Shown here piece after piece: positions 3,001 to 30,038 of a DNA stretch of 61,496 nt. Numbering within the stretch: position 1 is the stretch's first letter; every line of letters starts with the position of its first letter. The stretch comes from a virus. The position numbers were made by a program, and so were the translations under genes. The stretch lies in the UHGV virus genome UHGV-0350099; one strand, written 5' to 3'. Below the pieces are notes generated by a model. It saw only the letters and a program-made list of their open reading frames with translations. It was not told where the DNA came from and did no database searches.

Positions 3001-4026
3001 ACTCTGACTGGAAACCTGCGTTTGTCTGCTGACAATGCCTCCATTGTCTGCGGTAACAATGGGGATATTGGCTTCATCAAAAAACAGGGCTACCCAGGCG
3101 CAATCGTGACTGGTTCGGCAACTAAGTTCATGATTATGCGTAGTAATGCGGCCACGAATATTTCGGCTGCAAATACGCTCACGGAAGTAATGTCCATCCA
3201 GCCAACCTCAAATCGTGCCGACTTCGTAGGTGAGGTGGTTTCGCATTCGGCAAATGCGTTACGCGCGGTTTACGGGAACTACGGCTTCTTTATTCGCAAT
3301 GATGGCGGCACAACTTACTTCCTGCTGACTGCTTCTGGCGATAAATATGGCAGCTGGAACACGTTACGCCCATTGTCCATAAACAACGCAAGCGGTGCAG
3401 TTTCAATGGGGAATGGCTTGAGCGTTGGGGGAGGGGTGAATGTCACGAGCGGAAATATCCGAATCCCGACGTCGAGCACATCGTGGATCGACATGAGGAA
3501 CAATGCCGCTCTGTCTAACAGTTCTGCGGTTGCCACTTCCTCTGCATCGGCCATTATTCGTCAGGAGCACGCCGATCGTCATTATTTTGTTGGTGGTTTA
3601 GGTAACTCTCAGTTCGGATTCTACATGATTAACAAGTCACGAACTGCGAACGGCACGGATGCGAACGCATACCTCCAGAATGATGGCACTTGGGTTTGTG
3701 GCGGTAATGGCAACTTTAATGACGTTTATATCCGCTCTGACCGTCGTAGCAAACGCAATATTCGCAAGATTGAACGGGCGCTCGACAAGCTGGATCGGAT
3801 CGAAGGTGTTCTCTACGAGATTCAGGTCTGTGACCGGTATGAGCAGTCTGGCGGCCTCATCGCTCAGGACGTCCAGAATGTTCAGCCTGAACTGGTAACG
3901 GTTGACCATAACGATCAGTCAGGAGAGCCTCGTCTGCGTCTTAACTACAACGGCGTTATCGGCATGTTGGTCGAGGCTGTCAAAGAGCTGCGCGAGGAAG
4001 TGCGCGAACTGAAGGCAAAAATGTAA
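1..4026 (+). CDS. Tail fibre protein, 5'-partial (frame 1 is open from base 1); C-terminal S74-type intramolecular chaperone domain
   Basis: No stop in frame 1 from 1 to 4026; Ala/Ser-rich N-region with KTSETNAKASE-like motifs; repeated GNAATATKLQTAR blocks; C-terminal SDRRSKRNIRKIE...LVEAVKELREEV resembles autoproteolytic chaperone domain. Confidence 0.8.
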   Translation, partial: ASSASAASTSAGQASASATAAGKSAESAASSASTATTKAGEATEQASAAARSASAAKTSETNAKASETRAESSKTAAASSASSAASSASSASASKDEATRQASAAKSSATTASTKATEAAGSATAAAQSKSTAESAATRAETAAKRAEDIASAVALEDASTTKKGIVQLSSATNSTSETLAATPKAVKAANDNANGRVPSNRKVNGKALTADITLTPKDIGTLNSVTISFSGGAGWFKLATVTMPQASSIVYIALIGGAGYNVGSPHQAGISELVLRAGNGNPKGITGALWKRTAVGLTNFAWINTSGDTYDIYVEIGNYATSVNIHWDCTANATVSIYTSPTYSASKPSSVTDGVVYTMYSTHQKPTPLDIGALPTTGGTVSGPLSVTGGLTGSLNGNASTATKLQTARSIGGVVFDGSANINLPGVNTTGNQNTTGNAATATKLQTARTINGVKFDGSADITLTPANLDVYSKSEIDNKKGMRKYTFSAPANAVSGKWYPIVFRRSGGSTDELASRVVITTYSSAGGYAMNNCEFNGFVMPGGWSDRGSYAAGFFSIYSTAERAIHSIISSVKDDDLCSVFYVEARAFPIKIFAEEGLNVIVPTADYAVGQTTYKWGATDPLSESTNAQIILDFKNGRGYYCSHPFISSLSGNAATATKLQTARTIGGVAFDGSANINLPGVNTAGNQNTTGNAATATKLQTARNINGVKFDGSGDININTLVSRGQVTALSGSTQGTAGIQMYEAYSNNYPTSFGNVLHMKGASAAGEGELLIGWSGTSGAHAPVYVRSRRDTSTANWSGWAQIYTTAHKPTAKDVGAAQAFSASYSTGAGNWTTAEFIAWLKERGAFEVPYWMMKGSWSYADNKIITDTGVGNICLAGAVIEVLGHEGAMTIRVTTPTTTTGGGIASAQFTYINHGSAYAPAWRRDYNTALKPTAADVGALPISGGTMNGVLTLQNVSQPLKTPGGGILANDGNLYINKSGFAGWIDALFLKNSGGTLTGNLRLSADNASIVCGNNGDIGFIKKQGYPGAIVTGSATKFMIMRSNAATNISAANTLTEVMSIQPTSNRADFVGEVVSHSANALRAVYGNYGFFIRNDGGTTYFLLTASGDKYGSWNTLRPLSINNASGAVSMGNGLSVGGGVNVTSGNIRIPTSSTSWIDMRNNAALSNSSAVATSSASAIIRQEHADRHYFVGGLGNSQFGFYMINKSRTANGTDANAYLQNDGTWVCGGNGNFNDVYIRSDRRSKRNIRKIERALDKLDRIEGVLYEIQVCDRYEQSGGLIAQDVQNVQPELVTVDHNDQSGEPRLRLNYNGVIGMLVEAVKELREEVRELKAKM

Positions 4027-24822: not shown

Positions 24823-27800
24823 ATGAAGGCACTGATGGTTCGAACTGACTTCTCACTTGGGGAGTCGGCTCTAAAAGCAGAAAACGCGGTGAAGATTGCC
24901 AGAGAAGCTGGCTACACCGCTGTAATTTCAGCAGATAGCATGAATATTGCGAGCGTTATTCCACTACAACGTGCCGCTGGTGACGACATGGCGGTTATTT
25001 GTGGTGTGAAACTAAACATTGTTGATGATCCCACATACGAGCACCGGGCTAAACTTGCTAAAGAATCTATGAGATGTATGGAATCATTAGAGCGGGGACG
25101 TAACTACTCGTTTACCGCTCTAATTAAAAATGAGCAAGGATATCGCGACATCTGCGAACTAATGACGGTGGCCAACACACGAGAACAGTTCTACTTTGTA
25201 CCGCGTCTCTCGCTCGAACAGTTGGTTTCTACATATGCCAAAGGCAACATCATCCTGCTTACTTCCGACATCGGTAGCGTGTTCCAACGCAACGATTTTG
25301 CAAAAATCATAAGCACACTGATTACAGCGGGTGGAAAAGACAACTTCTATAGTGTGGTTTATCCGCACCCTACCCCATTCTACGACCAGATTAACGTCCG
25401 AGCGATGAAAGTAGCCAGCGCACTGAAAATAGAGCCAGTAGCGTTCTATCCCGCTTATTACGAATCGATCGACGATGCAGACATTAAAGACATTGCGCAC
25501 ATGGTTACGAACAACATAAAAATCGACCAGCCGCATCGTCTGCGTATCCCCCACCAGCGAGATAACGCCATCAATGGTCGTCGCCATCTCCTTGAGGCGC
25601 TTAAAGCCTTCTCCGTTCGCATGGATGTGCCGGTAACAGCTGCAATGGCCTCAACAACGCAGGACTCCATTATCGATGCCTGCACATGGCGCTGGCATGA
25701 ATTGCCACCAGCACTGCCCAAGATGGCAGACGACGAACCTGCAACGCTGATGAAACTGGCTGTTGCAGGGCTGCGTAAACGTCTTACCACAAAAGAGTTT
25801 GGATACACACCACCTGCTTCTGAGAACAGGGTTTATGTTGAGCGGCTAAAGTACGAAATGAACACGCTGACTCGCCTGGGATTTTGTGGTTACTTCCTGA
25901 TGGTACGCGATCTGATGAATCACAGCCGTGAAACTGGCATTCCTGTCGGGCCTGGTCGTGGTTCCTCTGCCGGTTCTCTGGTGGCGTGGTGCATAGGCAT
26001 AACCAACGTCGACCCAATCCGTCACGGTCTTCTGTTTGAGCGTTTCATCAACCCTGAGCGTCTCGACTTGCCGGATGCGGACTTGGACTTCAGCCAGGCA
26101 CGTCGCCATGAGGTGATCGAGTATCTGAATGAACGCTACGGCGAAGATTACGTTGCAGGCATTCCGAACTTCACCTATCTGGGCGCGGCATCTGCACTAC
26201 GTGACACCGCTCGTATTTATGGTGTGGAGTCCGCAGATATGGCGGTATCAAAAGAACTGAAGAACGTCGAGGATGATAGCCTTCCATTGGAAGAGCTGCG
26301 CGAACAACTGGCAAGTCTCGACAAATACGCAACAAAATATCCTGATGCATTCAATGCAGCCTGCAAGTTACAAAGCCTTATGCGTGGCTTTGGTAGACAT
26401 GCGGCAGGGATGATTGTAGCAGGTGTTCCTCTGACAGAACGTACACCGGTTGAGCGCCGTGGTGACGCGCGTTGTATCGCATTTGACAAGCGTTACTGCG
26501 AGGCTATGGGCCTAATTAAGCTGGACGTGCTTGGCCTGGCAACTCTCGATTTGCTCGATAGTGCAAAACGCTACATAAAAGAGAACACAGGTGAAGATAT
26601 CAATCTTGATGCCATTTCTCTTGAAGATCGCAAGGTGCTGGATGGTTTTGCTGCAGGGTATACACAGGGCGTATTCCAGCTGGAGTCCGGCCCCATGCGC
26701 AAGCTGCTTAAAGATCTAGGCGGTGGCATTGAGCCAATGAGCTTTAAAACCGTTGTCGCCACGACCGCACTCTTCCGACCTGGCCCGATCCAATCCGGCA
26801 TGTTGGACGACTATGTTTCTGTCGCCAAAGGCTTTATGACGCCGGAATCATTACACCCCGTTCTTGATGAACTTACCGCGGAAACAAATGGCGTGATTCT
26901 CTATCAGGAACAGACGATGAACGCGACTCGATTGCTTGCCGGCTTCACAATGGCTGAAGCTGACGGTGTGCGTTCCGCAATCGGTAAGAAGAACATGGAA
27001 AAAATGAAGAGCATGGGCGAGAAGTTCATCGTTCAGGCTCAAGCTGGCTGGATAGACGTTGAGCTGGAAGATGGCACTACACAGCGCATTCACCGTGCGG
27101 AACATTTTAAATGCGAAGACGGAACTCTGAAAACTGTCGAAGAGGCACTTGAGCACGGCGCAAAACTACCTATAAACGCAGTACGCGTTACAGCGTCACA
27201 TCCAGGGCTATCAGAGATGAAAGCGAAGGAGATCTGGACCGCATTCGAAAAAAATGGTGCCTACCAGTTCAATAAATCACACTCCGTTGCTTATTCTTTA
27301 ATCAGTTATCAGTCTATGTGGCTAAAGACGCACTACCCTGCTGAGTTCTTCGCAGCTGCGCTCACCATTCTGGGCGAGGATAAGCATCAGGGGCTGGTGA
27401 AGGATGCGCTGACCTATGGCATTCGCGTATTGCCACCAGACGTTAATGTGTCATCTAACCGAATTGAGATCCGCACACTCGAAGACGGCAGTCAGGCACT
27501 GTATGCGCCATTCTCTGCTGTGAAAGGCTGTTCTGAAAATGGTTGTCAGGCAATTATGCGTGCGCGTGAGAAAGTTGGTGGCAAATTCGAGTCAGTGGCA
27601 CAATTCGATGAAGCGGTCGAGAAGCGTGCATGTAACAGTCGTGTACGCGAGTCGCTTCATAAAGTAGGGGCTTTTGCGTCAATTGAGCCAGGCAGTCTGC
27701 CAGCAACTGATCCTGAACGACTGCGCGACCAGGCTGAGCTGATGGGCAATCTCATCATTGACGCTGTTAAAGCATCACGTCCGTTCGAAATGAATCCTAA

Positions 27801-28341
27801 GCGTTCTGCCGAAATCAACGTACTCATGACACGTATGGCGGCTGAAATGGGCTTGGGTGAGGAGTTGATACGCCCGACTATTGGTATTAAACCCAAAATC
27901 ATGATCATTCTGGACAATGCGAACGGCAATGACGCTCGTACCGGCTACTTCATGGAGAACGGATACGACGACTTTAAGGCAAAACTACTGACAGTTGGAG
28001 ATCTGCGCATGGGCGATCTTTATGTCACGGGTGTTTGTAAGAAGGTTAAGGACAAAGAGAAAGACTATACCAAAGACGAGATAGGCCAGTTCACAGACTT
28101 TATGCGGGAAGAAATTAATCTTGTACGACCAACCTACATTTTGACGTGTGGTAGTCGTTCAACCGCACTATTTAACAATAAGAGTAAACCATCAGATCTG
28201 ATTGGTCGTAAGGAGTACTTCCCAGAGCTTGATGCAACCGTCTTCTACGGATTTAACCCGAATATCCTGTACTTCCGACCGGAAGAAGGAGAGCGACTGG
28301 AGGCCATTCTGGCTGATATCGCGGAGACAATAAATAAGTAA
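24823..28341 (+). CDS. dnaE: DNA polymerase III alpha-subunit-like (DnaE-family, C-family polymerase)
   Basis: 1172 aa; N-terminal PHP-like region; core GFCGYFLMVRDLM...GPGRGSSAGSLVAWCIGITNVDP...PDADLDF. Confidence 0.9.
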   Translation: MKALMVRTDFSLGESALKAENAVKIAREAGYTAVISADSMNIASVIPLQRAAGDDMAVICGVKLNIVDDPTYEHRAKLAKESMRCMESLERGRNYSFTALIKNEQGYRDICELMTVANTREQFYFVPRLSLEQLVSTYAKGNIILLTSDIGSVFQRNDFAKIISTLITAGGKDNFYSVVYPHPTPFYDQINVRAMKVASALKIEPVAFYPAYYESIDDADIKDIAHMVTNNIKIDQPHRLRIPHQRDNAINGRRHLLEALKAFSVRMDVPVTAAMASTTQDSIIDACTWRWHELPPALPKMADDEPATLMKLAVAGLRKRLTTKEFGYTPPASENRVYVERLKYEMNTLTRLGFCGYFLMVRDLMNHSRETGIPVGPGRGSSAGSLVAWCIGITNVDPIRHGLLFERFINPERLDLPDADLDFSQARRHEVIEYLNERYGEDYVAGIPNFTYLGAASALRDTARIYGVESADMAVSKELKNVEDDSLPLEELREQLASLDKYATKYPDAFNAACKLQSLMRGFGRHAAGMIVAGVPLTERTPVERRGDARCIAFDKRYCEAMGLIKLDVLGLATLDLLDSAKRYIKENTGEDINLDAISLEDRKVLDGFAAGYTQGVFQLESGPMRKLLKDLGGGIEPMSFKTVVATTALFRPGPIQSGMLDDYVSVAKGFMTPESLHPVLDELTAETNGVILYQEQTMNATRLLAGFTMAEADGVRSAIGKKNMEKMKSMGEKFIVQAQAGWIDVELEDGTTQRIHRAEHFKCEDGTLKTVEEALEHGAKLPINAVRVTASHPGLSEMKAKEIWTAFEKNGAYQFNKSHSVAYSLISYQSMWLKTHYPAEFFAAALTILGEDKHQGLVKDALTYGIRVLPPDVNVSSNRIEIRTLEDGSQALYAPFSAVKGCSENGCQAIMRAREKVGGKFESVAQFDEAVEKRACNSRVRESLHKVGAFASIEPGSLPATDPERLRDQAELMGNLIIDAVKASRPFEMNPKRSAEINVLMTRMAAEMGLGEELIRPTIGIKPKIMIILDNANGNDARTGYFMENGYDDFKAKLLTVGDLRMGDLYVTGVCKKVKDKEKDYTKDEIGQFTDFMREEINLVRPTYILTCGSRSTALFNNKSKPSDLIGRKEYFPELDATVFYGFNPNILYFRPEEGERLEAILADIAETINK

Positions 28342-28347
28342 TAAAGA

Positions 28348-28372
28348 AAACCCGCCTGTTGGCGGGTTTATA
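28348..28372. terminator. Bidirectional rho-independent terminator between dnaE (+) and cspA (-)
   Basis: AAAACCCGCC-TGTT-GGCGGGTTTAT, A-tract and T-tract on either side. Confidence 0.65.
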
Positions 28373-28644
28373 AAGAATTATGGCGCTTGTTGAGGAAGTC
28401 ACTCCTCTTACGCACTTTGTTTTGCCATGCCGGCAGTTAGCTTCTGCCTTTGACTATTCATGCGGCAACCCCGCATTTCGCCACAATGGGCAATTCACTT
28501 TTATGGAATAAACTGGCCGTTGTGTCGATTTAATTAGCATGGCCTTACCATGCTAATTTATTCAACTTGTACAATCCTACAAATCTATCCACTCAGGCTT
28601 ACACCGTCTTCGTTATTGTAGAAATGAGGATCATCAGCGTTGAA

Positions 28645-28860
28645 TCAGCTTAGAGCAACGACATTTGCTGCTGCTGGGCCTTTAGCACCATTCTCGATAG
28701 AGAATTCGACCTGCTGGCCTTCTTCCAAAGTGCGGAAATTATTACTCTGAATTGCCGAAAAATGTACAAAAACATCTTTACTGCCATCAGCAGGAGAAAT
28801 AAAGCCAAAGCCTTTATCAGAGTTAAACCATTTTACTAAACCAGTCATTTTATTAGACAT
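28645..28860 (-). CDS. cspA: Cold-shock protein, CspA family
   Basis: [38 protein letters not shown]... with RNP motifs KGFGFI and VFVHF; start trimmed to MSNK. Confidence 0.9.
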
Positions 28861-29075
28861 AGATATTACCTTCTTAATTTTGTGAGCCACATAGTGCGGC
28901 GAGAATTTGATCTGTATAGATTGGGACTTACTTAGGCACTTAAGGAGGAGACTCACGAAGAAGGGAAATCAGAAGATAACACTGAACTGAGACTGCTTTA
29001 CTAAAACTGCTTACATAAGGTCTGTCTTGCAAACCAACGATGCTATTAACGCATACCCCTTCTTTTCATGCAACC
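28861..29075 (-). promoter_or_regulatory. cspA-type promoter and long 5' UTR
   Basis: On minus strand reads TTGCAT -35-like, TTAAT -10-like and a cold-box-like TGCAAGACAGACC; about 180-nt leader as in enterobacterial cspA (recalled from memory). Confidence 0.5.
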
Positions 29076-29189
29076 TTTATTTTTCAAAGATAACTAATTT
29101 TTGTCACCATTGGTTTAGTAAACGTTAACGAACCAGACGATGCCAGACACCTTTACAGAGAACAGATGCCCGCCAATTGGCGGGCATCA

Positions 29190-29753
29190 TTATGCGCATT
29201 TCGCAATATCTTTGCGGCGTTTAATCAGTTTCTCCGCAATTTGCTCTATTTCGTTGAAATCTTTCGAGACGCTGTTTCGAAGCGCCAGATTCCATTTACT
29301 CAAAGTTCGGGCATTTTGGACAATTTGATCGCCCTCTTTAAGTCGTCCGTTATTCATGAGCCATTCAGCCACATCAGCCCAATCCCAGAGAGGAGACTGG
29401 CCTTTTATGCGTTGTACAGGGCAAGGGAAGTCGCCGCTTCCGCGCTTACCGTCTTTGAGCAACGCCACTGCCTGGCGAGACAGGTCTGTCAGTTCCGCGA
29501 TATCGCTTAAGCCCACAAGAGCCGAGTCGACGGATTCAACAATTGCACCGATACCGGCTGATTCAATATTGTCGACCGCAGATGCGATAGCTGCATCAAG
29601 TGATTGTGCTTCGCGGTCAAATTCTACATAGACGGAGTTTCCATATGCGCAAATTAGCGCATCGTCACAGCCGTTTTGGTACAGCGCGTCTTCCAGTCCT
29701 TCCGTCTCATACGATACGCCTGAGAGCGTCAGAGTGAAGTTATAAAGCGCCAT
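29190..29753 (-). CDS. Putative DNA-binding protein with HicB-like N-terminal fold (antitoxin-like)
   Basis: Start taken at MALYNFTLTL; N-terminal YxFTLTL...YVEF pattern and a C-terminal HTH-like segment; assignment is weak. Confidence 0.3.
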   Translation of the reverse strand: MALYNFTLTLSGVSYETEGLEDALYQNGCDDALICAYGNSVYVEFDREAQSLDAAIASAVDNIESAGIGAIVESVDSALVGLSDIAELTDLSRQAVALLKDGKRGSGDFPCPVQRIKGQSPLWDWADVAEWLMNNGRLKEGDQIVQNARTLSKWNLALRNSVSKDFNEIEQIAEKLIKRRKDIAKCA

Positions 29754-29813
29754 AGTTTTCCTTTGAAGATAGTTGGACAGTTTCTGCAAAAGGCGGCTAA
29801 TGCCGCCTTGAAA

Positions 29814-30038
29814 TCATTTACAACGATCAACCATTCGTTTGATCTGTTTGGCATGGTTTTCGGGATTACCCGGAGTCGACCATACGCTCATTTGGTGAGT
29901 TTTGTGTTCACCTTCTGGATTACCGCATCGCAGTCTGCAAAAACAATGTGCAGCACCACCAGCTGCTACCCAGATCCAGCCTTTACTTAATGCATAGTCA
30001 ATGGCTGCTTGAATATGCTTATTCGGATGTTGCTTCAT
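29814..30038 (-). CDS. Small Cys/His-containing protein upstream of the HicB-like gene
   Basis: 74 aa, HCFCRLRC...H..H motif; first gene of a two-gene minus-strand cassette. Confidence 0.35.
   Translation of the reverse strand: MKQHPNKHIQAAIDYALSKGWIWVAAGGAAHCFCRLRCGNPEGEHKTHQMSVWSTPGNPENHAKQIKRMVDRCK

Follow-up and report, generated by a model that had tools for sequence, protein, structure and literature searches.

A putative cold-shock gene cassette with a structured 3' untranslated region on the phage-plasmid Cyrano/pLF82

We examined a minus-strand cold-shock gene, csp, within the viral genome UHGV-0350099, a stretch of 61,496 nucleotides (nt) that is referred to here, at its full length, as the window. 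The 951 nt around csp were 100% identical to Escherichia phage Cyrano (OV696614.1) and to plasmid pLF82 of E. coli LF82 (NC_011917.1; 108,379 bp, IncFIB, non-mobilizable), an element classed as an SSU5-like phage-plasmid by Misson et al. (PMC9928086). Csp probably sits in a self-contained cassette of about 755 bp (29102-28348, minus strand) that is carried as accessory cargo by Cyrano/pLF82, resembles the class I cold-inducible csp genes of E. coli in its mode of action, and encodes a 71 amino acid (aa) RNA chaperone of the CspB/CspG/CspI clade. The gene itself adds little: cold-shock genes on prophages of E. coli are familiar, and this copy already carries a label in RefSeq. What is of interest is that phage-plasmids from several genera of enterobacteria maintain a complete cold-shock regulatory cassette, which is strongly selected and is also found in lambdoid prophages, an indication that mobile elements trade cold-shock capacity among themselves; and that the window copy includes a structured RNA domain, a candidate new RNA motif and the main lead of this analysis. 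The parts of the cassette are as follows.

29074-29102, minus strand: A/T-rich UP-like tract AAAAATTAGTTATCTTTGAAAAATAAAGG, the AAAATAAA core of which aligns with the tract upstream of K-12 cspA, cspB and cspG
29068-29073, minus strand: -35 element TTGCAT, the same as the -35 of cspA
29045-29053, minus strand: extended -10 element TGc-GTTAAT, separated from the -35 by a 17-nt spacer
28861-29038, minus strand: leader or 5' untranslated region (UTR) of about 178 nt, its start placed by alignment with the cspA +1 and by the start of the Rfam model
29019-29035, minus strand: cold-box hairpin GGUUUG-CAAGA-CAGACC, the first helix of the RF01766 consensus
29021-29031, minus strand: cold box UGCAAGACAGA, aligned with those of cspA, cspB and cspG, with 10/11 identity to cspG and 8/11 to cspA
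28886-28900, minus strand: extended "upstream box" hairpin GCCGCA-CUA-UGUGGC, where cspA, cspB and cspG have GCC-GAAA-GGC
28869-28872, minus strand: Shine-Dalgarno (SD) sequence AAGG, in a AAGGUAAUA context that is the same in cspA and cspI
28645-28860, minus strand: csp coding sequence (CDS), ATG at 28860 and stop codon at 28647-28645, 71 aa plus stop
28834-28848, minus strand: downstream box AUGACUGGUUUAGUA (codons 5-9), with little or no variation among the aligned csp genes
28516-28644, minus strand: proximal 3' UTR, with the block AUAACGAAGACGG...GCCUGAGU invariant in the window, Klebsiella, Buttiauxella and Qin/Tritos cspB
28377-28515, minus strand: five-helix RNA domain of about 140 nt in the csp 3' UTR, supported by covariation
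28348-28369, minus strand: intrinsic terminator AAACCCGCC-AACA-GGCGGGUUU followed by UUCUUUAUU, found by terminator scan, 7 nt from the dnaE stop codon (28341, plus strand)

The initial annotation had placed a CspA-family gene at 28645-29075 on the minus strand, and this was borne out: the range has the -35 and the stop codon as its exact limits, and the translation matched the Pfam cold-shock domain (CSD; PF00313) over residues 5-69 of 71 (E=1.4e-33; 115 bits, cut-off 27), with both nucleic-acid-binding motifs, RNP1 KGFGFI and RNP2 VFVHF. The protein is 71 aa long and not the 72 aa given there, and the range leaves out the UP-like tract (29102-29074) and the approximately 300-nt 3' UTR with the terminator. 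Calling the gene cspA was right as to family and too narrow as to clade. Pairwise identity to the K-12 proteins was 58/71 (82%) for both CspB and CspG and 57/71 (80%) for CspI, versus 51/71 (72%) for CspA, which places csp by sequence within the CspB/G/I clade rather than with cspA in the narrow sense. The RefSeq name, "cold shock protein CspG" (WP_000066497.1 in NC_011917), is better read as a nearest-name label than as a statement of orthology, because the protein is equally close to CspB. Chromosomal cspG resembles csp in its protein (82% identical) and in having a promoter and leader of cold-shock type, but differs in its DNA (about 73% identity) and shows no synteny; K-12 cspG is followed by ymcF-ymcE-gnsA, whereas the window gene is followed by a 3' domain of the cspB type. 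Orthology to cspG, taken as closest sequence together with shared context, was thus not found: CspB is as close, the DNA is nearer to cspB (76% vs 73%), and neither the downstream genes nor the 3' domain are those of cspG.

The promoter, leader, cold box, SD and downstream box aligned column for column with K-12 cspA, cspB, cspG and cspI, in keeping with the annotated promoter and long cold-box leader of enterobacterial cspA type. The TTGC block of the -35 was invariant in an alignment of 10 csp promoters, the extended -10 sequence TGCGTTAAT recurred unchanged in cspB, cspG, cspI and the orthologues on phage-plasmids, with TGGCTTAAT in cspA instead, and the downstream box AUGACUGGUUUAGUA was identical in cspB, cspG and cspI. 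A generic sigma-70 scan did not flag the extended -10 of csp because the A at position 2 is missing. The UP-like tract may function as its homologues do. Upstream, hicB ends in a terminator of its own at 29188-29165, so that csp is a separate transcription unit; the sole other terminator-like site returned by the terminator scan was 28369-28348. This supports a predicted promoter of cspA type that is autonomous from the flanking phage genes.

The leader belongs to a known RNA family. Rfam RF01766 (cspA thermoregulator) matched 29038-28620 with 187.6 bits (E=6.7e-50; gathering score 78), above the scores of K-12 cspB (158.8 bits) and cspI (112.8 bits) with the same model. Because the model spans the CDS, from which much of this score comes, the leader (29038-28861) was rescanned by itself and still matched model positions 1-159 (28.4 bits, E=6e-6). 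The match is full-length, with a predicted OFF stem-loop sequestering SD and AUG as in the cspG, cspB and cspI thermometers (PMC13271884), but the cmscan alignment of the window leaves several pairs of the consensus non-canonical, and the match lacks the terminator of the model, the real terminator lying about 280 nt further downstream. The extended upstream-box hairpin recurs as GCCGCG-UUG-UGUGGC in Klebsiella and Buttiauxella and as GCCAUG-UUG-CGUGGC in an E. albertii plasmid, the pairing being preserved in these copies, by eye, through one-sided or two-sided changes.

We examined if csp is a recent acquisition from the host, as the description "moron from the host" implied. A csp copy was present in 90 of 5,426 complete E. 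coli genomes; these 90 full-length matches were at least 99% identical, and the listed example is a plasmid. Among plasmids in PLSDB, an SSU5-type dnaE occurred in 781 (221 from Escherichia, 313 from Klebsiella), the csp cassette at 99% identity or more in 63, and a version about 78% identical in some of the plasmids from Klebsiella, Enterobacter and Buttiauxella. Sequence comparison found no csp match in SSU5, CMS-2020a, PhiR41_1 and several Klebsiella phages, though dnaE matched in each. By distribution the gene is dispensable, being held by only a sub-lineage of SSU5-like phage-plasmids; the moron label is apt because csp is accessory among them, and the gene has its own predicted promoter and terminator, which insulate it from the flanking phage genes. 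Recent capture from the host did not hold up. The best chromosomal DNA matches in E. coli were cspB (about 76%) and cspG (about 73%), with alignments spanning the -10 through the CDS, and K-12 cspB itself lies within the Qin cryptic prophage. Orthologues on SSU5-like plasmids were 78% (Klebsiella/Enterobacter) and 83% (Buttiauxella) identical over the whole cassette and occupy the same uvsY-dnaE interval in Klebsiella and Buttiauxella, and their proteins were 66-67/71 (93-94%, Klebsiella) and 65/71 (92%, Buttiauxella) identical to that of the window. Synonymous differences from the orthologues came to 34-35 at about 45 sites, which is saturation, and nonsynonymous differences to 4-6 at about 168 sites (34 and 4, respectively, against the Klebsiella orthologue); third codon positions were 54% identical, against 80% (Klebsiella) and 93% (Buttiauxella) for the leader, and the open reading frame (ORF) was intact in all copies examined. 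The synonymous saturation, the few nonsynonymous changes and the conserved leader argue for purifying selection on both protein and leader and for long residence on this lineage; on these comparisons csp is a long-resident, selected accessory gene and not a recent host capture. The low chromosomal match, the syntenic orthologues and the 3' domain held in common with the cspB of lambdoid prophages point to exchange among mobile elements combined with long residence.

The closest known system is the Qin-type cspB cassette (K-12 b1557; Tritos TRITO_45 in LF82). Both are on mobile elements and have in common the TTGC-T/TGCGTTAAT promoter, the cold box, the leader-CDS stem-loop, a 71-aa CSD protein (82% identical), the proximal 3' block, the five-helix domain and the terminator. 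The entire csp 3' UTR is homologous to the region downstream of cspB in Qin and Tritos, so that what the phage-plasmid and the lambdoid prophages have in common is the whole cassette, from promoter to terminator. They differ in that the DNA is about 76% identical, the window leader is about 17 nt longer and has the extended upstream-box hairpin, and the cspB cassette lies in the lambdoid Q-S interval whereas that of the window lies in the replication module of a phage-plasmid. The nearer relatives, the csp genes of Klebsiella, Enterobacter and Buttiauxella (pSZP4-9-2-109k, phage pJN2-26, p1WJP83), are alike in the uvsY-dnaE locus and the extended upstream-box hairpin; hicAB is inserted upstream of csp in the E. 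coli lineage, and the 3' domain is missing from Buttiauxella and some Klebsiella copies. The csp of E. albertii plasmid p1RM10507 (L011, 3001-3438), an IncF plasmid on which csp adjoins fimbrial genes, looks mosaic: its leader was 77% identical to that of the window, extended upstream-box hairpin included, and its CDS is CspA-like (73% identical to the window protein). This mosaic suggests, from sequence, that csp cassettes exchange leaders and coding regions by recombination.

Minimum free energy (MFE) folds of the leader plus 75 nt of CDS were compared between the phage-plasmid copies (window, Klebsiella, Buttiauxella) and K-12 cspG, cspB and cspI. All gave one architecture, a long stem-loop in which leader positions +33 to +48 pair with codons 5-9, and the SD is paired with an upstream pyrimidine tract (+75 to +79 in the window copy). 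Dimethyl sulfate mutational profiling with sequencing (DMS-MaPseq) of cspG, cspB and cspI found a long stem-loop at 37°C and, at 10°C, a shorter, register-shifted stem-loop that frees the ribosome-binding site (PMC13271884), and we infer that the predicted architecture of the window leader corresponds to their 37°C OFF conformation. The csp transcript also has a single bubble of C over G (C/G up to 2.4), at +61 to +150; Rho-dependent attenuation of csp leaders at 37°C has been reviewed (PMC12360218), and the bubble is consistent with attenuation of this kind.

From these likenesses we infer the transcription start, cold induction, a thermosensor switch, Rho attenuation and a benefit to fitness, in the following manner. 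A strong sigma-70 promoter (UP tract, TTGCAT, extended -10) would fire independently of phage control. At 37°C the approximately 178-nt leader and the first codons would fold into the long stem-loop, hiding SD and AUG, and the mRNA would probably also be short-lived and Rho-attenuated at its C-rich leader. Upon a temperature downshift the leader would refold, the mRNA would be stabilised and translated, and the lysogen would have an additional supply of Csp, the probable benefit being that the host, and hence the phage-plasmid, survives better after leaving the warm gut. The transcript is expected to run through the five-helix domain to the intrinsic terminator, the domain probably tuning the fate of the mRNA or yielding a 3'-derived RNA. 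Expression elsewhere in the same strain is compatible with such a scheme: in LF82, cspB and cspI of prophage Tritos are strongly expressed morons, 59-fold and 93-fold above the prophage background (PMC9928086), which indicates that csp cassettes of this sort are active in lysogens.

Several points weigh against an extra cold-inducible dose of Csp as the role of the cassette. The marginal benefit of one more copy is uncertain, since four cold-inducible csp genes are already present in E. coli and LF82 has the prophage cspB and cspI in addition. The leader also departs from its models: it is 17-33 nt longer than the leaders of the K-12 paralogues, and the canonical GCCGAAAGGC(A/C)CA upstream box is replaced, a hairpin (followed by UCACA) and its flank being kept while the sequence differs. 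Partition-function folding of the full mRNAs (ViennaRNA, 10-42°C) showed no cold opening of the SD-AUG region, the accessibility of which hardly varied with temperature; the same was true of cspA, cspB, cspG and cspI, and equilibrium folding is uninformative here because it reproduced no switch even for authentic cspA. Finally, csp was not found in the LF82 transcriptome tables (text and supplements searched; PMC9928086), where the Cyrano table jumps from CYRAN_49 to CYRAN_50. Record OV696614.1 has no feature between CYRAN_49 (dnaE) and CYRAN_50 (hicB), leaving csp unannotated, which is why the published tables and moron list skip the gene; the moron count for the Crohn's-associated strain LF82 is incomplete as a result. 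The orthologue of phage pJN2-26 is labelled "putative portal protein", and a literature search for csp genes on SSU5/pHCM2-like elements gave no relevant paper.

The surroundings of csp bear on a second explanation. Upstream and on the opposite strand lie genes for RecA (with an inserted homing endonuclease), an exonuclease, a gp32-like single-stranded DNA-binding protein and a UvsY-like protein; on the csp strand the order is hicA-hicB and then csp; and dnaE (DNA polymerase III alpha, 1172 aa, plus strand, 24823-28341) is convergent with csp. The gene is thus within a replication/recombination module, with the UvsY-like gene (and hicAB) on one side and dnaE on the other. It could be that the cassette serves the life cycle of the phage-plasmid, with Csp as an RNA chaperone or antiterminator for replication, recombination or late genes in the cold. 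CspA-family proteins are known transcription antiterminators, the RefSeq product name reads "RNA chaperone/antiterminator CspA", the position within the module is held in E. coli, Klebsiella and Buttiauxella elements, and the homologous cassette of lambdoid prophages is flanked by the antiterminator Q gene on one side and by the lysis genes on the other. We consider this unlikely: many SSU5-like elements, SSU5 included, are viable phages without csp, and the promoter and leader are, by sequence, of a host type that is cold-regulated rather than phage-regulated.

The analysis also covered the 3' UTR of the cassette. No terminator was predicted directly after the csp stop codon, and the transcript is expected to continue for about 300 nt to 28369-28348. 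Within this interval lies the five-helix domain, the elements of which are as follows.

28515-28507/28499-28491, minus strand: P0, hairpin
28487-28479/28385-28377, minus strand: P1, closing P2, P3 and P4
28476-28471/28465-28460, minus strand: P2, helix
28448-28444/28436-28432, minus strand: P3, helix
28407-28403/28396-28392, minus strand: P4, helix
28418-28407, minus strand: invariant single strand AAAGUGCGUAAG, 12 nt, between P3 and P4

The folding energy of the domain was -74.7 kcal/mol compared to -51.7±4.3 kcal/mol for shuffled sequences (z=-5.4). Scanning viral and metagenome contigs for its motifs yielded 289 copies (112 loci from the metagenome scan), and 260 of these had at least 700 nt of upstream sequence; in 257 of the 260 a cold-shock-domain ORF lay upstream on the same strand. 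The proteins upstream of the copies were diverse, with 53 distinct Csp proteins, some only about half identical, by eye, to that of the window, and the carriers included lambdoid prophages, phage PHB10, SSU5-like phage-plasmids and a conjugative Klebsiella aerogenes plasmid. The invariance of AAAGUGCGUAAG is partly by construction because the scans were baited with AAAGUGCGUAAG or with the P3 motif. Over 52 distinct sequences the five-helix model had 94.3% of cells paired, with both sides changed in 16 of 34 pairs, whereas slid controls, in which partners were shifted by 1-3 columns, had 24-57% paired and 3-7 two-sided pairs. P1 alone had covariation at 5 of 9 pairs (for example, A-U in 31 versus G-C in 21), P1-P4 were recovered independently by RNAalifold from the first 8 sequences, and compensatory substitutions occurred in every helix between the window and the Qin/Tritos cspB cassette. 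The G·U pairs make sense solely on the csp-sense strand.

Three other identities for the region were tried and rejected. As a small protein gene it failed, since ORFs on either strand were not conserved and two compensating 1-nt indels (window vs Tritos) fell inside the best-conserved stretch. As a dispersed repeat or miniature inverted-repeat transposable element (MITE) it is too rare: the 1715 of 5426 E. coli genomes that have the domain contain 1-2 copies each (median one), and it was annotated in none of them. It is also not a known RNA family, with no Rfam match in any lineage scanned: for the window, a scan with E up to 10 gave weak matches below every gathering score, mostly to the terminator hairpin, and in five other lineages nothing covered the domain. 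A literature search for a cspB 3' UTR RNA gave nothing relevant, and the csp-linked domain appears to be undescribed. We tentatively put it forward, as a claim about evenly poised but leaning to the doubtful side, as a previously undescribed class of structured RNA dedicated to the cold-shock genes of mobile elements. It could control mRNA decay against cold-shock exonucleases, be a Csp-binding feedback site, or be the source of a 3'-derived small RNA. It lies outside the range first annotated, and as it is also present downstream of cspB in K-12 Qin (L004, about 3530-3700) it is directly testable in a standard laboratory strain.

The domain may have a second conformation. In an alternative fold, favoured by RNAalifold on 16 sequences, P1 gives way to two helices, one of its 5' arm with an upstream ACAAYGG and one of its 3' arm with the invariant GUGC. 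The GUGC helix was 99.5% paired in the 52 sequences, through one-sided, wobble-compatible changes only; the other helix, Px (ACAAYGG/CCRTTGT), was 77% paired with two positions mostly broken and was rejected as part of the model, being left as a possibility. A two-state switch is possible because both arms of P1 can pair elsewhere. The terminator hairpin was kept in Klebsiella, Buttiauxella and lambdoid cspB cassettes, while the 3' domain was cleanly missing from the Buttiauxella cassette and some Klebsiella cassettes.

These results bear on whether RNA, rather than protein, is the main product of the cassette, with the leader (through its cold box) or the 3' domain acting in trans to titrate Csp, Rho or RNases (thereby de-repressing the cold-shock regulon), or with a small RNA using AAAGUGCGUAAG as seed. 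Work from the Inouye laboratory reportedly found that over-expression of the cspA leader de-represses cold-shock genes, leader conservation in csp exceeds that of synonymous sites, and the 3' domain combines covariation-supported helices with an invariant 12-nt strand beside an intrinsic terminator. We regard RNA as main product as quite improbable, because purifying selection acts strongly on the protein (34 synonymous differences as against 4 nonsynonymous), so that the CDS is not a mere carrier; moreover, the 3' domain is dispensed with in otherwise intact Buttiauxella and Klebsiella cassettes, a search of the window for a trans target complementary to AAAGUGCGUAAG returned only the element itself, and a promoter scan predicted no internal promoter in the 3' UTR. 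Least probable, and disfavoured, is a neutral hitch-hiker left over from recombination with a lambdoid prophage and without present function, for although the homology with the Qin/Tritos cspB cassette runs end to end, 3' domain and terminator included, and csp lies in a variable region of the phage-plasmid, the ORF is intact, the protein is 92-94% identical across E. coli, Klebsiella and Buttiauxella elements in the face of saturated synonymous sites, and promoter, leader and terminator are conserved at a locus that is syntenic across genera.

Some features of the cassette RNA were seen in passing. The proximal 3' UTR contains a perfect 11-bp hairpin, AAUUAGCAUGG-UAAGG-CCAUGCUAAUU (28558-28532, minus strand), in the E. 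coli phage-plasmid version only; CCAUGC in its 3' arm is complementary to GCAUGG (about 28430) within the 3' domain, and this long-range pairing is used by the single-sequence MFE fold. A motif AAGUGC-N-UAAG is common, in the same sense, to UAAGUGCCUAAGUAAG of the leader (28941-28926, minus strand) and to the AAAGUGCGUAAG strand of the 3' domain (28418-28407, minus strand). This could represent a protein-binding site common to leader and 3' domain, or it could be coincidence. In the K. aerogenes plasmid (L138, 1692-1919) and in PHB10 (L194, 3376-3603), csp and the 3' domain are followed by a conserved 75-aa ORF, ...YPNGE...IMSAGFPSLTGDH..VYVASDRELTSQEILDAA.KYL, which had no Pfam match; further downstream there is an Rfam match to the small RNA STnc100, and no canonical terminator follows the domain in these lineages.

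Directly upstream of csp, the hicA-like (74 aa) and hicB-like (199 aa) genes (29190-30038, minus strand) are a toxin-antitoxin pair according to the Cyrano annotation; their proteins had no Pfam matches at E<=0.001. The pair is not in the Klebsiella and Buttiauxella relatives, where csp adjoins the uvsY-like gene directly, and in the LF82 transcriptome tables the values of the hicA-like and hicB-like genes are among the highest of the Cyrano genes (PMC9928086). Four tRNA genes (Asn-GTT, Tyr-GTA, Thr-TGT and Ser-TGA) are clustered on the phage-plasmid (17478-18131, plus strand). The gene for DNA polymerase III alpha is uninterrupted in the window and is interrupted by a NUMOD4/HNH homing-endonuclease gene in Klebsiella/Enterobacter relatives (L008, 5381-6076; L010, 5220-5915). 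The recA-like neighbour is labelled a LAGLIDADG homing endonuclease by RefSeq, which suggests that an intein or intron is inserted in that gene.

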